Positions 193 through 11,074 are shown, numbered from the stretch's first letter. The stretch is DNA of 64,000 nucleotides from Candidatus Lustribacter sp. (GCA_965277805.1 OZ255842.1:832001-896000), one strand, 5' to 3'. Translations and numbers: made by a program. The notes: a model not told the origin generated them from the sequence alone.

Positions 193-1380
193 ATGCAAAA
201 AGGGCGCGAGATCACGCGCGGCAAGACCAAGATCCTCTACGAAGCCGATGGTCAGCCCGATTTGGCCGTCATTCAGCAGATGGACGCGATCACGGCCGGC
301 GACGGCGCGCGGCGCAACGAGATCGAAGGCAAGGGACGCATTGCGGCCAAAACGACCGCGCGCGTATTCCGGCTCTTGAACCTGTGCGGCGTGCCTACCC
401 ACTACATCAGCGGCGGCGAAGACGACGACAACAACGAGATGCTCGTGCGCCGCGCGCAAATGATTCCGCTCGAAGTCGTGACGCGCGGCGTTGCGGCGGG
501 TTCGTTCGTCAAGCGCAAAGCCGGCGTCGCGCGGGGCGCGATCCTCGTGCCGCGGATCGTCGAGTTCTTCCTCAAGGACGACGCCAATCACGATCCGCTG
601 ATCGAGCCGGATGCGATCATCGGGCAGAACATCGCGACGCCGCAAGAGCTGGGCGTGATGAGCGAAATCGCTCGCATCGTGTACGAGATCCTCGCGCATG
701 CCTGGCGCCGCCACGACACGCTGCTGGTCGACATGAAGATCGAGTTCGGCCGCGTCGCCTCCGGCGAGCACAAGGGCCAGCTCGTGGTCGCCGACGTGAT
801 CGACAACGACGCCTGGCGCGTGTGGCCGCAGGGCCGCGAAGAGCTGATGCTCGACAAGCAGATGTACCGCAACCTGCCCAACGTCACCGACGCCGATCTG
901 GCGACGATCAAAGCCAACTACGAACAGGTGGCCGAGATCGTCGGCATGTTCCCGCTGATGCGGCCCGGCATGGTGGCGGTAATCGCCGACGGTCCCGAGT
1001 TCGTCGAGCGGGCCTCCGAGATCGCCCGCGCGTTGAGCGGCTTCGGCTTGCCCGCCGTGCGCCACGTCGCCTCGGCGGTGCGCACGCCGGGCTACGTGCT
1101 GCAACTCGTGACGCAGATCGACGCCACGTTCGCCCGCGCGCTGATCGTGACGGTCGGCTCGGGCGACGGTGCGCTGGCGAACATGATCGAGTATGCAACG
1201 GCCACGCCGGTCGTGCGTGCGCCCGCGACGGCCGACGTGAACCAGGTTGCGCTGCAGTGCGCGAAAGCGTTCTCGCTCGAGGATACGATCGTGTACGGCC
1301 GCGTGCTGCTCGTACAAGCGAACACGCGCTCCACGGTGCTGCAAGCCGACGCCACGTTGAACCAGCTCCCGACCGCGTGA
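193..1380 (+). CDS. purC: SAICAR synthetase fused to a degenerate PurE-like domain (PAICS-like architecture)
   Basis: GKTK, DAITAGDG, DMKIEFG and DVIDNDAWRVWP motifs; C-terminal ~140 aa PurE-like (VASAVRTP, TPVV). Confidence 0.9.
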   Translation: MQKGREITRGKTKILYEADGQPDLAVIQQMDAITAGDGARRNEIEGKGRIAAKTTARVFRLLNLCGVPTHYISGGEDDDNNEMLVRRAQMIPLEVVTRGVAAGSFVKRKAGVARGAILVPRIVEFFLKDDANHDPLIEPDAIIGQNIATPQELGVMSEIARIVYEILAHAWRRHDTLLVDMKIEFGRVASGEHKGQLVVADVIDNDAWRVWPQGREELMLDKQMYRNLPNVTDADLATIKANYEQVAEIVGMFPLMRPGMVAVIADGPEFVERASEIARALSGFGLPAVRHVASAVRTPGYVLQLVTQIDATFARALIVTVGSGDGALANMIEYATATPVVRAPATADVNQVALQCAKAFSLEDTIVYGRVLLVQANTRSTVLQADATLNQLPTA

Positions 1381-3683
1381 ACGAAACCCTCGACCGCGAT
1401 ACCGAACGCCTGATCGAGGAGCGCAAGCGCATCGGCGTCGCGCTTTCGCCGGACGAAGTGCGCGCGATCGTCGCGCACCTCGGCCGCATCCCGACCGATA
1501 CCGAGCTGTTCGCGTTCGACGCGCAGTGGAGCGAGCATTGCTCGTACAAGTCGAGCCGCCACTTTCTGCGCCGCTTGCCGACCGACGGGCCGACCGTGAT
1601 GCAAGGGCCGGCCGAAGACGCCGGTATCCTGCACTTGGGAACGTGGGAGGGCGAACGCTACGGCGTCGTCATCGCGCACGAGTCGCACAATCATCCCTCG
1701 CAAGTCGTGCCGTTCGAGGGCGCGGCGACCGGCGTCGGCGGGATCGTGCGCGACGTGCTGTGCATGGGCGCGGAGGTGATCGGCATCGCCGATCCGCTGC
1801 GGTTCGGCAGGCTCGAGGATCCGCACTGCCGGTACGTGGCGCAGAGCGTCGTCGACGGCATTGCGGCCTACGGCAACGCGATCGGCGTGCCGAACCTGGG
1901 CGGCGACGTCTACATCGACGAGTCGTTCGACGACAACGTGCTGGTCAACGTGGTCGCGCTCGGGCTCGTCAAAGAGCGCGAGATCATCCACTCGTTCGCG
2001 CCGCCGAACTCGATCGGCTACGACATCGTGCTCGTCGGCAAGGCCACCGACCGCAGCGGCTTCGGCGGCGCCTCGTTCTCCTCGCTGACGCTCGACGACG
2101 CCGATGCGGAAGCGAATAAAGGCGCGGTGCAAGTGCCCGATCCGTTCCTCAAGAACGTGATCATGCGCGCTTCGTATAAGGTGTTCGCCGAACTGCGCCG
2201 GCTCGGCATCGAGGCCGGCTACAAGGATCTCGGCGCGGGCGGATTCGCGGGCTGCAGCGCGGAGCTCTGTGCGGCCGGCGGGGTGGGCGCCGAAGTGGAA
2301 CTCGACCGCGTGCCGGTGTCGCAACGCGATCTGCCGCCCGCGGTCATCGCGATCGGCGAGACGCAAGAGCGCTTGTGCTGGATCGTGCCGCCGTCGTTCA
2401 CGCCGCTGCTGCTCGCCATTTATAACGAAGAGTTTTCGCTGCCGCGCATTTCGCGTTCGGCCGCGGCTGCCATCGTCGGCAAGGTGGTCGATGGATCGCG
2501 TTACGTCGCGCGCCACCGCGGCGAGGTCGTGATGGACGTCGATCTCGACTTCCTGACCGGCGGGGTCCGGTACAACCGGCCCTACACGATCGCGTTGCCG
2601 AATCCCGTGCCGCAAACGGCGCCGCTGCCGCGCTTCGGTGACGCGGGGACCGCGCTCGATGCGCTGCTCGCGCATCGCGACGTCGCCTCGCGGCGTTCGA
2701 TCTTCGAGCGTTACGACGGCGTCGTGCGCGGCACGACCGCGATCCCGCTCGGCGCCGCCGACGCGGGCGTGATCTCCCCGATTCCGGGTGCTCCGCTGGC
2801 CGTCGCGCTCGCGGTCGCCGGCAACCCCCGCTATGGGAAGATCGATCCGCAATTAGCGGCCGAACATGCGGTGCTCGAGGCCGTGCGCAACGTCGTTGCA
2901 GTCGGTGCGCGGCCGCTCGGGCTCACCGACTGTCTGAACTTCGGCGATCCGACCGATCCGGAACACCTCGGCGCGATGGTCGCCGCGATCGACGGCCTCG
3001 CGTATGCGGCGCGCCGCTTCGGCACGCCCTACGTCTCGGGTAACGTCAGCCTCTACAACCAGTCGAAGTCGGGCCGCACCGTCGCACCGTCGCCGATCGT
3101 TGCGTGCGTGGGCGGGATCGAGAACATCGCGCAGACCGCCAGCATGGCGTTCAAGCGGGCGGGTTCGGCGCTCTACTTCGTCGGCCGGCCGGAAGAACGC
3201 ACCGGCGGTTCCGTCTACGCGGATTTGCTCGGGATCGCGAACGCGATACTGCCCACGATCAGCTACGATCGCGTCGAGCGCGAGATCGCGCTGCTGCTGG
3301 CGGCGTACGCGGACGACCTCGTGCTGGCTGCCCACGACATTTCCGACGGCGGCGCGCTCACCGCGCTCGCCAAGATGGCGTTCGCGACCCAGAGCGGCGC
3401 GCGCATCGGCATGAAACTCAGCGAGTCCCCGCTGGACGGGCGCGCGGGCACCGCCGCCTTCACCGAAACGTGCGGCTTCATCGTCGAAGTCGGCGACGCG
3501 CCGAAGTTCGAAGCGCTCGCGCAAACACACGGTGCGGACGCGCTGCGCATCGGCGAAACGACGGCGGCCTATACGTTCGTGTTTGCGGGCGGCATCGAAC
3601 GCCCGCTCGACGTTCTTTACGAAACATGGTCGGCGCCGTTGCGCGACTTCTACGCACCGGCGTCCGTCGCAGGTGCGGCTTAG
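1377..3683 (+). CDS. purL: FGAM synthase subunit PurL (small type)
   Basis: GTG start overlapping the purC stop; WSEHCSYKS, HESHNHPS, GAATGVGG, DCLNFG, SGNVS and HDISDGG motifs. Confidence 0.95.
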   Translation: MNETLDRDTERLIEERKRIGVALSPDEVRAIVAHLGRIPTDTELFAFDAQWSEHCSYKSSRHFLRRLPTDGPTVMQGPAEDAGILHLGTWEGERYGVVIAHESHNHPSQVVPFEGAATGVGGIVRDVLCMGAEVIGIADPLRFGRLEDPHCRYVAQSVVDGIAAYGNAIGVPNLGGDVYIDESFDDNVLVNVVALGLVKEREIIHSFAPPNSIGYDIVLVGKATDRSGFGGASFSSLTLDDADAEANKGAVQVPDPFLKNVIMRASYKVFAELRRLGIEAGYKDLGAGGFAGCSAELCAAGGVGAEVELDRVPVSQRDLPPAVIAIGETQERLCWIVPPSFTPLLLAIYNEEFSLPRISRSAAAAIVGKVVDGSRYVARHRGEVVMDVDLDFLTGGVRYNRPYTIALPNPVPQTAPLPRFGDAGTALDALLAHRDVASRRSIFERYDGVVRGTTAIPLGAADAGVISPIPGAPLAVALAVAGNPRYGKIDPQLAAEHAVLEAVRNVVAVGARPLGLTDCLNFGDPTDPEHLGAMVAAIDGLAYAARRFGTPYVSGNVSLYNQSKSGRTVAPSPIVACVGGIENIAQTASMAFKRAGSALYFVGRPEERTGGSVYADLLGIANAILPTISYDRVEREIALLLAAYADDLVLAAHDISDGGALTALAKMAFATQSGARIGMKLSESPLDGRAGTAAFTETCGFIVEVGDAPKFEALAQTHGADALRIGETTAAYTFVFAGGIERPLDVLYETWSAPLRDFYAPASVAGAA

Positions 3684-4480
3684 TGTCGCGCGTCGCCGTC
3701 GTCGTCTTTCCCGGCACCAATAGCGAAGCCGAAACGCAGCGCGCGCTCGTCGCGGCCGGCACCGATGCGGAAATCGTGCACTGGAGCCGCGGTTCGGCCG
3801 CGCTGCGCGCGTTCGACGCGTACGTCTTGCCCGGCGGCTTCGCCTACGAAGACCGCGTGCGCGCCGGCGCCGTCGCCGCGCACGATGAAGTGATGGACGC
3901 GGTCGTCGAGGGCGCGCAGGCCGGCAAGTTCGTGATCGGGATCTGCAACGGCGCGCAAGTGCTGCTCGAAGCGGGGCTCGTGCCCGGCACGGGACCGCTG
4001 CGCCGCCCAACCGCCGCCTTCGCGCCGAATACGAGCGGCAAATTCATGTCGGTGCACGTCTTCGTCAAACTTGCGGTGTCGCACACGCGCGTTCCGCTGC
4101 TGGCGGGCCTGCCCGACGGAGCGGTGCTGCCGGCGTGGGCATCGCACGGTGAGGGGCGGTTGGCGGCGCCCGATGACGAACTGGATCGGATGGAACACAA
4201 CGGGCACGTCGCGTTCGTGTACTGCAACGCGCGCGGCGAGCGGGTTCCCGCGCCCAACGGCTCGGCGCGCGGCGTCGCCGGCCTCACGAACGTTGCGGGC
4301 AACGTGCTGGCGCTCATGCCGCATCCCGAGCGCGACGCCTGGACCTTCATGCATCGCGACAACGACCCGGAGAAACTGGCAGCGCGCGGCAACGTACAGG
4401 CGATGCTTGCGCCGTCGGGCGGCACGGCGTTTTTCCAAGCCTTCGCTGTGGGCCTGGCCGCGCGGCGGCTCATGCGATGA
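3683..4480 (+). CDS. purQ: FGAM synthase glutaminase subunit PurQ
   Basis: GTG start; VVFPGTN, LPGGF, GICNGAQ and MPHPER motifs (catalytic triad intact). Confidence 0.95.
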   Translation: MSRVAVVVFPGTNSEAETQRALVAAGTDAEIVHWSRGSAALRAFDAYVLPGGFAYEDRVRAGAVAAHDEVMDAVVEGAQAGKFVIGICNGAQVLLEAGLVPGTGPLRRPTAAFAPNTSGKFMSVHVFVKLAVSHTRVPLLAGLPDGAVLPAWASHGEGRLAAPDDELDRMEHNGHVAFVYCNARGERVPAPNGSARGVAGLTNVAGNVLALMPHPERDAWTFMHRDNDPEKLAARGNVQAMLAPSGGTAFFQAFAVGLAARRLMR

Positions 4481-4926
4481 GCGAGATCATCGAGCGCGCG
4501 TACGTCGTGACGCTGACGATTCCCGATAACGAGGCCTTCACCGCCCTCACGACGCTTGCCCGCATCGGCCTCGCCGTCGAGACGGCCGTCCGCTCCGACG
4601 TCTGGATCGCGAGCGTGGAAGCCGAGCACGCCCTGGCGCTCGACGGGACGATCACCACGATCGAGACCGTCTACAACCCAAACAAGCATCGCCTCGAGGT
4701 GCGCGAAGACGCCCGGCCGCGCTCCGGCGAGGTATGGATCACCGCTCATGACGAAACGCCTGCGATTACCATCGCGGGCCGAACCGTCGACGGTGTCCGG
4801 GGGATCGTGCGCCGCACGTCGTGGCGGCTGCTCGATCAAAACGGGGCCGACGTCCCGGCAGCCGTGCTCGATCGCGCGACCGAATCTTTCCTCTGCAATC
4901 CCGCGTTTCAAAAGGCAATACGATGA
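4477..4926 (+). CDS. purS: PurS-like protein, about double length (tandem domains)
   Basis: Overlaps the purQ stop; 149 aa with two NP motifs (VYNPNKH, LCNPAFQ) and a PDNEA motif resembling PurS DP. Confidence 0.55.
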   Translation: MSEIIERAYVVTLTIPDNEAFTALTTLARIGLAVETAVRSDVWIASVEAEHALALDGTITTIETVYNPNKHRLEVREDARPRSGEVWITAHDETPAITIAGRTVDGVRGIVRRTSWRLLDQNGADVPAAVLDRATESFLCNPAFQKAIR

Positions 4927-6002
4927 CGATGATGGTTCAGCCGTTCCTCCAGGGTGCTACGAGCGAACGGGACTCGTCGGAATTTTATACGATCGCCACG
5001 CTGGGCTCGCATTCGGCGCTGCAGATTCTCAAGGGCGCGCGCGATGAGGGCTTCAAGACGCTCGCTATCGCGAGTCCCGATACGGAGCGGTTGTACAAAT
5101 CGTTCGGCTTCATCGACGAAGTCATCACGATTCAGAAGTACTCCGAGTTCATGGACCTCGTGCCGGAACTCGAGAAGCGCAAGATCATCATCGTGCCGCA
5201 CGGATCGTTCGTGGCGTATCTCTCGCTCGACGATCACAAGAAGATGTCGATTCCCTACTTCGGGAACAAAGCCGTGCTCGATTGGGAAGCGAGCCGCGAA
5301 CTGCAGCGTCAGTGGCTGACGCGCGCCGGCCTCAAGGTACCGCGTCAGTTCCGCACCGGTGCCGAGATCGACCGGCCGGTCATCGTGAAGCTCTACGGCG
5401 CCCAGGGCGGCAAGGGCTACATGTTCTTGCGCAACTCGCAAGATTTCGATGAGCGCGCCGGCTTGCTCGCGCGGCAAGACTACATTTTGCAAGAGTACGT
5501 GATCGGCGTGCCGTTCTACATCCACTACTTCTACTCGCCGCTGACCGGGAAGCTCGAGATCATGTCGATGGACAGGCGCTACGAGACGAACGTCGATTCA
5601 CTCGGCCGCATTCCGTCGCGCGCGCAGGAAGGGATGGACATCGATCCGTCCTACGTCGTGGTCGGCAACTCGCCGCTCAGCCTGCGCGAATCGATGCTCG
5701 CCGAAGCCTACCGCATGGGCGAAGACGTCGTGCGCGTCAGCCAAGAGATCTGCGGTCCGAAGGGCCTCTTCGGCGCGTTCTGCATCGAGACGATCATCAC
5801 GCCCGACGCGCAGTTCTATATCATGGAAGTTTCTGCGCGCATCGTTGCGGGAACGAACCTGTTCATTGACGGGTCGCCGTACTCGTACCTGAACTACAGC
5901 GAGCCGATGTCGACCGGGCGCCGGATCGCCCGCGAGATCAAGAATGCGCTGCTCTCCAATTCACTTAATGCGGTCCTGGACGATTCCACGCAAGTTTCGT
6001 AA
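4923..6002 (+). CDS. purP: Formate-dependent FAICAR synthetase (archaeal-type ATP-grasp)
   Basis: IATLGSHSALQI, PHGSFVAY, YFGN, DRRYETN, EVSARIVAGTN and MSTGRRIAREIK motifs. Confidence 0.9.
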   Translation: MTMMVQPFLQGATSERDSSEFYTIATLGSHSALQILKGARDEGFKTLAIASPDTERLYKSFGFIDEVITIQKYSEFMDLVPELEKRKIIIVPHGSFVAYLSLDDHKKMSIPYFGNKAVLDWEASRELQRQWLTRAGLKVPRQFRTGAEIDRPVIVKLYGAQGGKGYMFLRNSQDFDERAGLLARQDYILQEYVIGVPFYIHYFYSPLTGKLEIMSMDRRYETNVDSLGRIPSRAQEGMDIDPSYVVVGNSPLSLRESMLAEAYRMGEDVVRVSQEICGPKGLFGAFCIETIITPDAQFYIMEVSARIVAGTNLFIDGSPYSYLNYSEPMSTGRRIAREIKNALLSNSLNAVLDDSTQVS

Positions 6003-9806: not shown

Positions 9807-11074
9807 GAATTCTCGTGGTCGGTGGCGGCGCTCGTGAAGATGCGCTGTCGTGGAAGCTCGCGGAATCGCCGTCGTGTGAGGCGATCTTCCACGCCCCGGG
9901 CAACGCCGGCACCGCATCGCGCGGAACGAATTTCGCCGACGTTTCGGCTACCGACACGCGCGCGATCCTCGACCGCGCCAAAGCCAACGCCATCGACCTC
10001 ACCGTGGTCGGTCCCGAAACCGCGCTCGCGGCGGGCGTTGCCGATCGTCTGCGCGATGCGGGCCTGAACGTCTTCGGTCCCAACCGTTCCGGCGCACGGC
10101 TCGAGTCGAGCAAGGCGTTCGCCAAACGTTTCATGGAACGTCACGGCATTCCGACCGCGCGTTTCGCCGTCGTCCATTCGCTGGCGGCCGCGCTCAAAGC
10201 GCTCGATCAATTCCCGAACGGCGTGGTGGTGAAAGCCGATGGGCTCGCGGCCGGCAAAGGCGTCGTCGTGTGCGACGATACCGCCGCTGCTTCGAACGTG
10301 CTGCGCGAGTGGTATGAGAAGAATAACGTTCCCGGCGGCGGCACCGACATCGTACTCGAAGAGCGGATGAGCGGTCGCGAGATTTCCGTCTTCGCGATTT
10401 CCGACGGCCGCGCGATGATCCCGATCGCGGCGGCGTGCGATTACAAGCGCGCCGGCGATGACGATCGCGGTCCGAATACGGGCGGCATGGGAGCGTATTC
10501 GCCGCCCTCCGGTTTCCCCGCCAACGTGCTCGAGATCGTCCGCGAGCGCGTGATCGCGCCGGTGCTGCGCGGCTTGCTCGCGGAAGATGAAATCTACCGC
10601 GGCGTGCTCTACGTGGGCCTGATGTGGACCGATAGCGGTCCGCGGGTGGTCGAGTTCAACGCCCGCTTCGGCGATCCGGAAACGCAAGTGATGATGCCGC
10701 GCGTCGGCGGCGACTTCGCGCGCTATCTGGCCAGCGCCGCGGAAGGCGCGATCGAACTCGACGCCGCGCACTTCTCCGACGATGCGTGCGTGGGCGTCAC
10801 GCTCACGACCGACCGCTACCCCTACGAGAACACGAAGATCGCCGGCCTGCCGGCCACGTTGCGGCTGCCCGACCACGTGGCCGTTTTTTGGGGCACGTCG
10901 ACGCGTGAGGGCGACCGCATGTCCTCACCCGGCGGACGGGTCCTCACCGTCACCGCGACGGCGCCGACCGTGGCCGAGGCGCGGACGCGGGCCTACGATG
11001 CGATCGCCCAGCTCAAGCCGCAATTCCCGCCCAACACGCCGCTCGTCTACCGCTCCGACATCGCCCGCCTCTAG
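9803..11074 (+). CDS. purD: Phosphoribosylamine--glycine ligase
   Basis: MRILVVGGGARE, PGNAG, KADGLAAGKG, GPNTGGMGAY and EFNARFGDPE motifs. Confidence 0.97.
   Translation: MRILVVGGGAREDALSWKLAESPSCEAIFHAPGNAGTASRGTNFADVSATDTRAILDRAKANAIDLTVVGPETALAAGVADRLRDAGLNVFGPNRSGARLESSKAFAKRFMERHGIPTARFAVVHSLAAALKALDQFPNGVVVKADGLAAGKGVVVCDDTAAASNVLREWYEKNNVPGGGTDIVLEERMSGREISVFAISDGRAMIPIAAACDYKRAGDDDRGPNTGGMGAYSPPSGFPANVLEIVRERVIAPVLRGLLAEDEIYRGVLYVGLMWTDSGPRVVEFNARFGDPETQVMMPRVGGDFARYLASAAEGAIELDAAHFSDDACVGVTLTTDRYPYENTKIAGLPATLRLPDHVAVFWGTSTREGDRMSSPGGRVLTVTATAPTVAEARTRAYDAIAQLKPQFPPNTPLVYRSDIARL

Follow-up and report, generated by a model that had tools for sequence, protein, structure and literature searches.

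PAICS is usually described as a eukaryotic or vertebrate bifunctional enzyme, and bacteria are usually described as having separate PurK, PurE and PurC proteins, at least in the accessible text of two reports (PMC10912719; PMC3261824). In the accessible text of the second of these, the term "PurCE" is applied to eukaryotes, its only occurrence in the literature that we searched, and the second domain of the PurE-PurE' protein of Methanobacteria is suggested to be possibly structural (PMC3261824). Our literature search, which covered open-access papers and preprints, found no paper on bacterial PurC-PurE fusions, on the pseudo-domain described below, or on purine synthesis in Eremiobacterota.

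To these systems we compare a gene of Candidatus Lustribacter sp., located at the start of a 64,000-nucleotide stretch of DNA (hereafter the window, from whose first letter positions are counted). The ORF starts with ATG at position 193, ends with TGA at 1378-1380 and encodes a 395 amino acid product with two domains:

193..1380, + strand: purC-purE' fusion gene, an ORF of PAICS type for SAICAR synthetase plus a degenerate class II PurE domain
193..951, + strand: SAICAR synthetase (PurC) half, residues 1-253, PF01259, predicted to be active
952..1377, + strand: pseudo-PurE domain, residues 254-395, a predicted PurE fold without the catalytic apparatus

The PurC half was readily recognized, with the Pfam SAICAR_synt family (PF01259) matching residues 7-228 (E = 3.8e-58; 197 bits, cut-off 20). 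The match of the C-terminal half to AIRC (PF00731) is borderline: hmmscan placed it at residues 261-347, where it covers profile positions 2-87 of 148 and scores 29.3 bits, just under the cut-off of 30, and in a six-frame search of the genome the same stretch of the ORF reached 31.2 bits (profile positions 2-88 of 148). The PurE profile TIGR01162 gave 34.5 against a cut-off of 149.6 and matched over the first half of the profile only. The NCBIfam equivalog for PurC, TIGR00081, gave 147.7 against a cut-off of 189.9, which intact homologues of family f3 and homologues of family f2 (see below) likewise fail to reach. Among solved structures, the best relative of the 395 amino acid protein is Bombyx PAICS (E = 2.4e-64; query 4-348 and 350-390), and human PAICS (E = 2.5e-57) also aligns over both halves; the best stand-alone PurC chain has an E value of 6e-33. 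With PAICS chains as the top solved relatives across both halves, the initial reading of the gene as a PurC::PurE fusion in PAICS order proved correct. Close database matches of the protein bear the names Candidatus Lustribacter, Elarobacter and Eremiobacteraeota, and the automated annotation of its relatives varies between PurC and bifunctional PAICS. LarB was considered as an identity for the C-terminal half and rejected, as the window protein had no NF033503 row at E <= 0.1; true LarB genes in its relatives score 277 bits (one f3 genome) and 263 bits (one f2 genome) with this profile.

The two halves are unequally conserved. In an alignment of 30 fused homologues, animals included, 37 of the 40 invariant columns fall in the PurC half, among them G10, K11, T12, K13, E94, R98, S104, R108, D130, K182, E184, D201, R209 and R226. 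The window gene is also the only SAICAR_synt match in the 5.53-Mb genome, in which the other pathway genes that we looked for are present. The PurC half, with its catalytic-region residues kept and as the sole SAICAR synthetase of the genome, is predicted to be the working part of the protein.

In the PurE half, alignment to active homologues located four sites at which catalytic features have been replaced or lost:

982..999, + strand: IADGPE (residues 264-269), in place of the phosphate-binding loop MGSxxD
1072..1083, + strand: SAVR (residues 294-297), in place of SAHK, with Val at the position of the catalytic His
1156..1170, + strand: GSGDG (residues 322-326), in place of AGRSN, the class II "70s loop"
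1213..1236, + strand: VRAPATAD, the site of a loss of about 24 residues, seen as a gap in alignments with active homologues

The first two of these had been read from the window sequence in the original prediction, and they stand: IADGPE aligns under MGSPAD and MGSTSD, and SAVR under SAHK, of Bombyx and human PAICS. The deletion is an addition to that prediction. It removes about 24 residues of the CPP...SSL.P.G loop together with a strand, and the match to PAICS breaks at query 348 (chain 356) and restarts at query 350 (chain 381). We take the His of the SAH[RK] loop to be the catalytic residue of PurE; titles of PDB entries list the E. coli mutants H45Q and H45N. In 123 f1 sequences, a set that leans towards close relatives, this position is never His; it is occupied by T (49), A (40), I (8), E (8), V (7), S (4) and others, and the P-loop positions are variable inside the family. 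Every catalytic motif that could be checked (P-loop, His, AGRSN and CPP loop) is lost, in line with the prediction that the PurE half is catalytically dead. The alignments show a domain that would be unable to carry the conserved catalytic apparatus, and its assignment as a putative pseudo-enzyme is well supported.

It is hardly credible that the domain is still an enzyme that performs AIR carboxylation or N5-CAIR isomerisation through different residues. The retained fold is all that speaks for such activity, while the motifs common to the active class I and class II sequences examined are all gone, the His has given way to T, A, I, E, V or S, and the genome encodes a complete class I purE-purK pair elsewhere.

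The fold itself was examined with an AF2 model of the window protein, obtained with a 30-sequence alignment (pLDDT 93.4, pTM 0.90). The model matches human PAICS (6yb8_A) with a TM score of 0.91 in Foldseek, and with Z = 46.1 and an rmsd of 2.3 over 388 of the 395 residues. When the C-terminal domain is compared separately, its best match is the Treponema denticola class II PurE (Z = 19.2, rmsd 1.9, 135 residues), and class I PurEs reach Z = 16.5 at most. A good AF2 fold is partly expected from homology, because active homologues were in the alignment. With this in mind, the C-terminal half is modeled as a PurE-fold domain packed as in PAICS.

Downstream of the fusion gene, further purine genes follow on the same strand:

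1377..3683, + strand: purL, with a GTG start and Pfam AIRS, AIRS_C and FGAR-AT linker matches
3683..4480, + strand: purQ, the glutaminase subunit of FGAM synthase (GATase_5, E = 2.3e-44)
4477..4926, + strand: a 149 amino acid ORF without family match, between purQ and the PurP-like gene and overlapping each by 4 bases
4923..6002, + strand: a PurP-like gene for an archaeal-type, formate-dependent FAICAR synthetase (DUF1246 and DUF1297)

At 1377-1380 (GTGA), purL begins with a GTG that shares bases with the TGA ending purC-purE', which suggests translational coupling. The 149 amino acid ORF, with no Pfam match at E <= 0.01 and no NCBIfam match at E <= 1, lies where we presume the usual operon order to put purS, and is about double the length of a PurS. 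The PurP-like gene ends the purC-purL-purQ cluster, and its product scores 382 bits on the NCBIfam family formate--phosphoribosylaminoimidazolecarboxamide ligase (cut-off 590). A normal PurH is encoded as well, at G000:C1:4248045-4249004.

Neither purE nor purK lies in the window, as had been noted: its sole AIRC match is the fusion ORF itself, and its one purK-like match (about 10073-10321) stays at 21.9 bits, far below the cut-off of 318. A search of the whole genome, which had been proposed as a check, located the pair 4.3 Mb from the fusion gene, with a class I purE (motifs GSQSD, SAHR and AHLPG) followed by purK at G000:C1:5112129-5113830 (5.11 Mb).

To place this arrangement among relatives, we tabulated motifs and purine genes in 41 genomes of the class to which the window organism belongs, and a staged series emerged. 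The most complete stage is found in family f3, whose proteins are 51-54% identical to the window protein. The fused AIRC domain scores 105-119 bits in 11 of 11 f3 genomes, all four motifs are intact in the 10 of 10 proteins tabulated (the motif table omits the unpublished genome G036), and purK was detected in none of the 11 genomes; apart from the fusion, AIRC matches only LarB, verified in one of them. In family f2, the His has been lost in all five proteins (replaced by Q, Q, S, Q and L) and the P-loop and 70s loop vary, with the long loop kept. All five of these congeneric genomes encode class I purE and purK, and their stand-alone PurE scores 217-225 bits on AIRC. Family f1, which includes the window organism, has a dead and shortened PurE half, which the AIRC profile finds in 16 of 25 genomes with 19.5-31.2 bits. 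Here purK is present in 23 of 24 genomes and a stand-alone purE in 22 of 24, the two genomes without the latter being 93% and 72% complete. The last stage is represented by the f1 genus g45 (G149 and G171; loci L113 and L112), in which purC stops just past the PurC domain and purL comes next; purK was found in G149 and not in G171. These tallies include two unpublished genomes (G015 in f1 and G036 in f3), and without both of them the motifs are intact in 10 of 10 f3 proteins, with purK in 0 of 10 f3 and 22 of 23 f1 genomes. None of the conclusions rests solely on these two genomes.

The branching order of a tree of PurC domains, in which f3 separates from f2 plus f1 (98/97) and g45 is sister to the remaining f1 rows, matches the staged series. 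The stages, from working to point-inactivated, shortened and finally deleted domain, track the occurrence of the class I PurE/PurK route. A wider sample of the phylum had the C-terminal domain in 69 of 71 f1, 1 of 1 f2 and 9 of 9 f3 genomes, and the 70 genomes of the other 18 families gave one weak match, to a stand-alone PurE. In the same sample purK was present in 68 of 71 f1, 1 of 1 f2 and 0 of 9 f3 genomes, with a patchy distribution elsewhere (14 of 70). In one congeneric genome, which is 79% complete, several overlapping fragments in differing frames make up the matches to stand-alone purE and purK (G002:C3:1241342-1242709), which could reflect frameshifts or assembly errors.

The presence of a class I PurE alongside the dead domain, in 5 of 5 f2 and 22 of 24 f1 genomes, is one of the points that would fit a docking platform, the second of the two roles put forward in the original prediction. 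Under this explanation the dead domain would co-assemble with class I PurE, and perhaps PurK, in a channelling complex in which CAIR is handed to PurC. The PurE fold and its C-terminal helices are kept, and in PurE octamers these helices touch neighbouring subunits. Substrate channelling has, moreover, been argued for human PAICS in the accessible text of one report (PMC8988938). However, we judge docking improbable. Descended from class II, the dead domain is distant from the class I PurE of the genome (stem branches of 1.02-1.65) and lacks a strand and a loop; the domain-less G149 still has purK, and the purE-purK pair lies 4.3 Mb away from the fusion gene.

We also evaluated how selection acts on the dead half. 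Across 11 orthologue pairs (Nei-Gojobori method), dN/dS was 0.07-0.29 for the dead half (residues 256-395) and 0.04-0.20 for the PurC half (residues 1-250); pairs with dS > 1 are saturated, and the six within-genus pairs with dS < 1 gave 0.07-0.21 for the dead half. The dead half is under purifying selection. Its rate of evolution is about double that of the PurC half, with a dN between genera of 0.26-0.36 versus 0.10-0.16, and its mean column entropy is 1.13 versus 0.56 bits. A set of 30 non-redundant f1 sequences shows conservation of strand 1, of the segments RTPG and DATFAR and of the two C-terminal helices, and variation among genera in the loops that once formed the active site. The C-terminal helix residues A353, A357, R370 and D386 are at least 90% conserved from animals to f1. 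Such constraint on the protein makes it plausible that the dead half has kept a role other than catalysis.

This constraint bears on the possibility that the domain is a decaying relic, functionless and on its way to deletion as in g45, which we consider unlikely. The stepwise series from intact to deleted is what a relic would leave behind, and both the faster evolution of the domain compared with PurC and its detection by Pfam AIRC in just 16 of 25 f1 genomes would agree with decay. Against this, dN/dS is far under 1 in all 11 pairs, the open frame and its length are maintained in 69 of 71 f1 genomes from many genera, the model is a confident one, and specific segments are more than 95% conserved.

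Purifying selection would also be expected if the domain had become a new ligand-binding or regulatory module, with the old pocket or a new surface binding a nucleotide or pathway intermediate and acting allosterically on PurC. In the sampled f1 set, S294, R297, T298 and P299 of the old 40s loop, together with D266 and G267, are highly conserved, but that set is biased to close relatives. Comparison between genera shows free variation in the P-loop, at the His position and in the 70s loop, and the pocket-closing loop is deleted; we therefore hold this role to be very doubtful.

The claim that the domain is a pseudo-enzyme kept for another role is thus borne out in one part, as its motifs are lost and its dN/dS is low, and must be limited in another, as one f1 genus has deleted the domain, which is therefore not indispensable. 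Given that purC of G149 and G171 ends after the PurC domain, PurC can work without the module, and the loss of the domain in g45 implies that the dependence of PurC on it can be overcome.

Taking the motif losses, the staged series and the selection data together, we consider it reasonably probable that the gene encodes a SAICAR synthetase built as a bacterial PAICS, in which a dead class II PurE is kept as a structural or oligomerisation module. The ancestral state would have been PurC fused to a working class II PurE (AIR carboxylase). In f1, conversion of AIR to CAIR would be carried out by a separate class I PurE with PurK, and the fused PurE domain would then have been stripped of its substrate-binding and catalytic loops, leaving a compact folded module. 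This module may have been retained since the PurC half evolved inside a PAICS-type assembly, and it would serve the folding of PurC, domain packing or oligomerisation, chemistry being no longer its job. The entry of the solved human PAICS is titled octameric, and we take the PurE domains to be the core of that octamer; the proposed scaffold role is drawn by analogy from the octamers of PAICS and PurE. While the observation of a dead, conserved domain is confirmed, the reason for its retention is one that we infer.

A bolder variant would turn the dead module into a recruiting surface, on which a PAICS-like octameric core gathers class I PurE, and perhaps PurK, and receives unstable N5-CAIR or CAIR directly for PurC, as a mini-purinosome. 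We regard this as quite improbable; if true, the pseudo-enzyme would be the organising subunit of a metabolon, beyond a mere leftover.

The PurC half of the window protein carries DVIDNDAWRVWP...DKQMYRNL, which had been taken as a metazoan signature. This did not hold. DVIDND.WR.WP is present in 33 of 58 stand-alone PurCs (full-length representatives of 255-300 amino acids from the 150 best matches of a search of 1.84 billion proteins), and also in Chloroflexus, Roseiflexus and Ktedonobacter genomes. Prokaryotic genomes were also scanned, with 80 of 484 confirmed loci retained and taxa assigned by record title plus motif check; fusions of PurC and PurE that are intact were identified in Eremiobacterota/Vulcanimicrobiota, Armatimonadota, Patescibacteria and Melainabacteria. 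Stand-alone PurC of PAICS type occurs in Chloroflexus, Roseiflexus, Oscillochloris and Ktedonobacter. In Anaerolineae, purC and a class II purE are separate but adjacent genes (purB, purC, purE, purF in L041).

A maximum-likelihood tree of PurC domains (62 rows) recovered a PAICS-type subfamily (100/98) that contains the window protein and is made up of three clades. The first (100/98) joins animals and animal-like sequences with the Armatimonadota and Melainabacteria fusions, the second (96/94) holds Chloroflexota and Patescibacteria, and the third (100/99) consists of the Eremiobacterota fusions, including the window protein. Forcing an exclusive clade of Eremiobacterota and animal-like sequences costs 23.7 log-likelihood units (p-AU 0.007), the group having been chosen post hoc from the tree. 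The description of the PurC half as "animal-like" has to be withdrawn, as the fusions of Eremiobacterota group in a bacterial clade of their own and the AU test rejects the joint clade. The label is also misleading because intact fusions occur in several bacterial phyla; the protein is better labelled a member of a bacterial PAICS-type family. Acquisition of the gene from an animal was considered and rejected, given the separate Eremiobacterota clade and the AU result, with the reservation that naming the group post hoc weakens the test.

In trees of PurE domains, whose backbone is unresolved and in which row L060 (branch length 5.3, probably a bad extraction) was disregarded, the PurE half falls in a class II-type clade (99/99) with the separate Anaerolineae PurEs, far from the class I PurE of the same genome.

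Several other arrangements were observed in the course of these searches. The PurC domains of animal PAICS join the Armatimonadota and Melainabacteria fusions (100/98), apart from other bacteria, in a eukaryote sample made up of animals only; this grouping would fit an origin of the animal fusion in bacteria. In Anaerolineae, the motifs of the adjacent PAICS-type purC and class II purE are intact (L041:1453-2793 and loci L032-L048), and this gene pair is a possible precursor state of the fusion. Three proteins (P0134, P0139 and P0147) form a second, independent PurC-PurE fusion group with a degenerate and shortened PurE half, nested in the animal-like clade of the PurC tree (92/77 inside a 99/90 clade). 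Further proteins in Thermomicrobiales and Chloroflexota records (L074, L084, L097, L108, L110 and P0130) combine a PAICS-type PurC with a long C-terminal extension, for a total of 645-746 amino acids; one cluster member bears the name amidophosphoribosyltransferase, which suggests a PurC-PurF fusion. Finally, five metagenomic proteins of 416-441 amino acids (P0160, P0175, P0193, P0198 and P0266) have the reversed order, PurE then PurC, and their PurE lies outside the PAICS class II clade.

Fusions of PAICS type are therefore widespread across several bacterial phyla, and one bacterial class holds a complete natural series from working fusion to deleted domain. This makes the locus a testable system for why pseudo-enzyme domains outlast redundant chemistry, and for how much of the PAICS architecture the PurC half alone needs. 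For annotation, f1 fusions should receive no AIR carboxylase credit in pathway reconstructions of the phylum.

Compared with known systems, the window protein shares with animal PAICS (PDB 2H31, 6YB8 and 4JA0) the domain order, an end-to-end alignment, the two-domain fold and its packing, and the PurC signature DVIDND.WR.WP...DKQ.YR. In contrast to animal PAICS, it has an AIR carboxylase half that is shorter by about 24 residues and lacks P-loop, His and AGRSN loop, its organism uses class I PurE plus PurK, and it belongs to a separate bacterial clade that is not nested among animals. Because the defining catalytic features fail, we regard it as derived by degeneration from the bacterial PurC-PurE(II) fusions and not as a PAICS. 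The intact fusions of this kind, from f3 (Candidatus Eremiobacter, Eremiobacteraceae), Armatimonadota, Patescibacteria and Melainabacteria, have the fusion in common with the window protein, and those of f3 belong to one clade with it (100/99); they differ in keeping MGSxxD, SAHK, AGRSNALS and the loop, and the f3 genomes are without purK (0 of 11). The purC and class II purE of Anaerolineae correspond to the window fusion in PurC subfamily, PurE type and gene order, but are two genes, with motifs intact in both. The nearest published parallel that we found in the open-access literature is PurE-PurE' of Methanobacteria, in which a diverged PurE-like domain is likewise fused to a purine enzyme. 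There, however, the partner is PurE and the fusion turns AIR into CAIR, whereas in the window protein the partner is PurC and PurE and PurK are separate.
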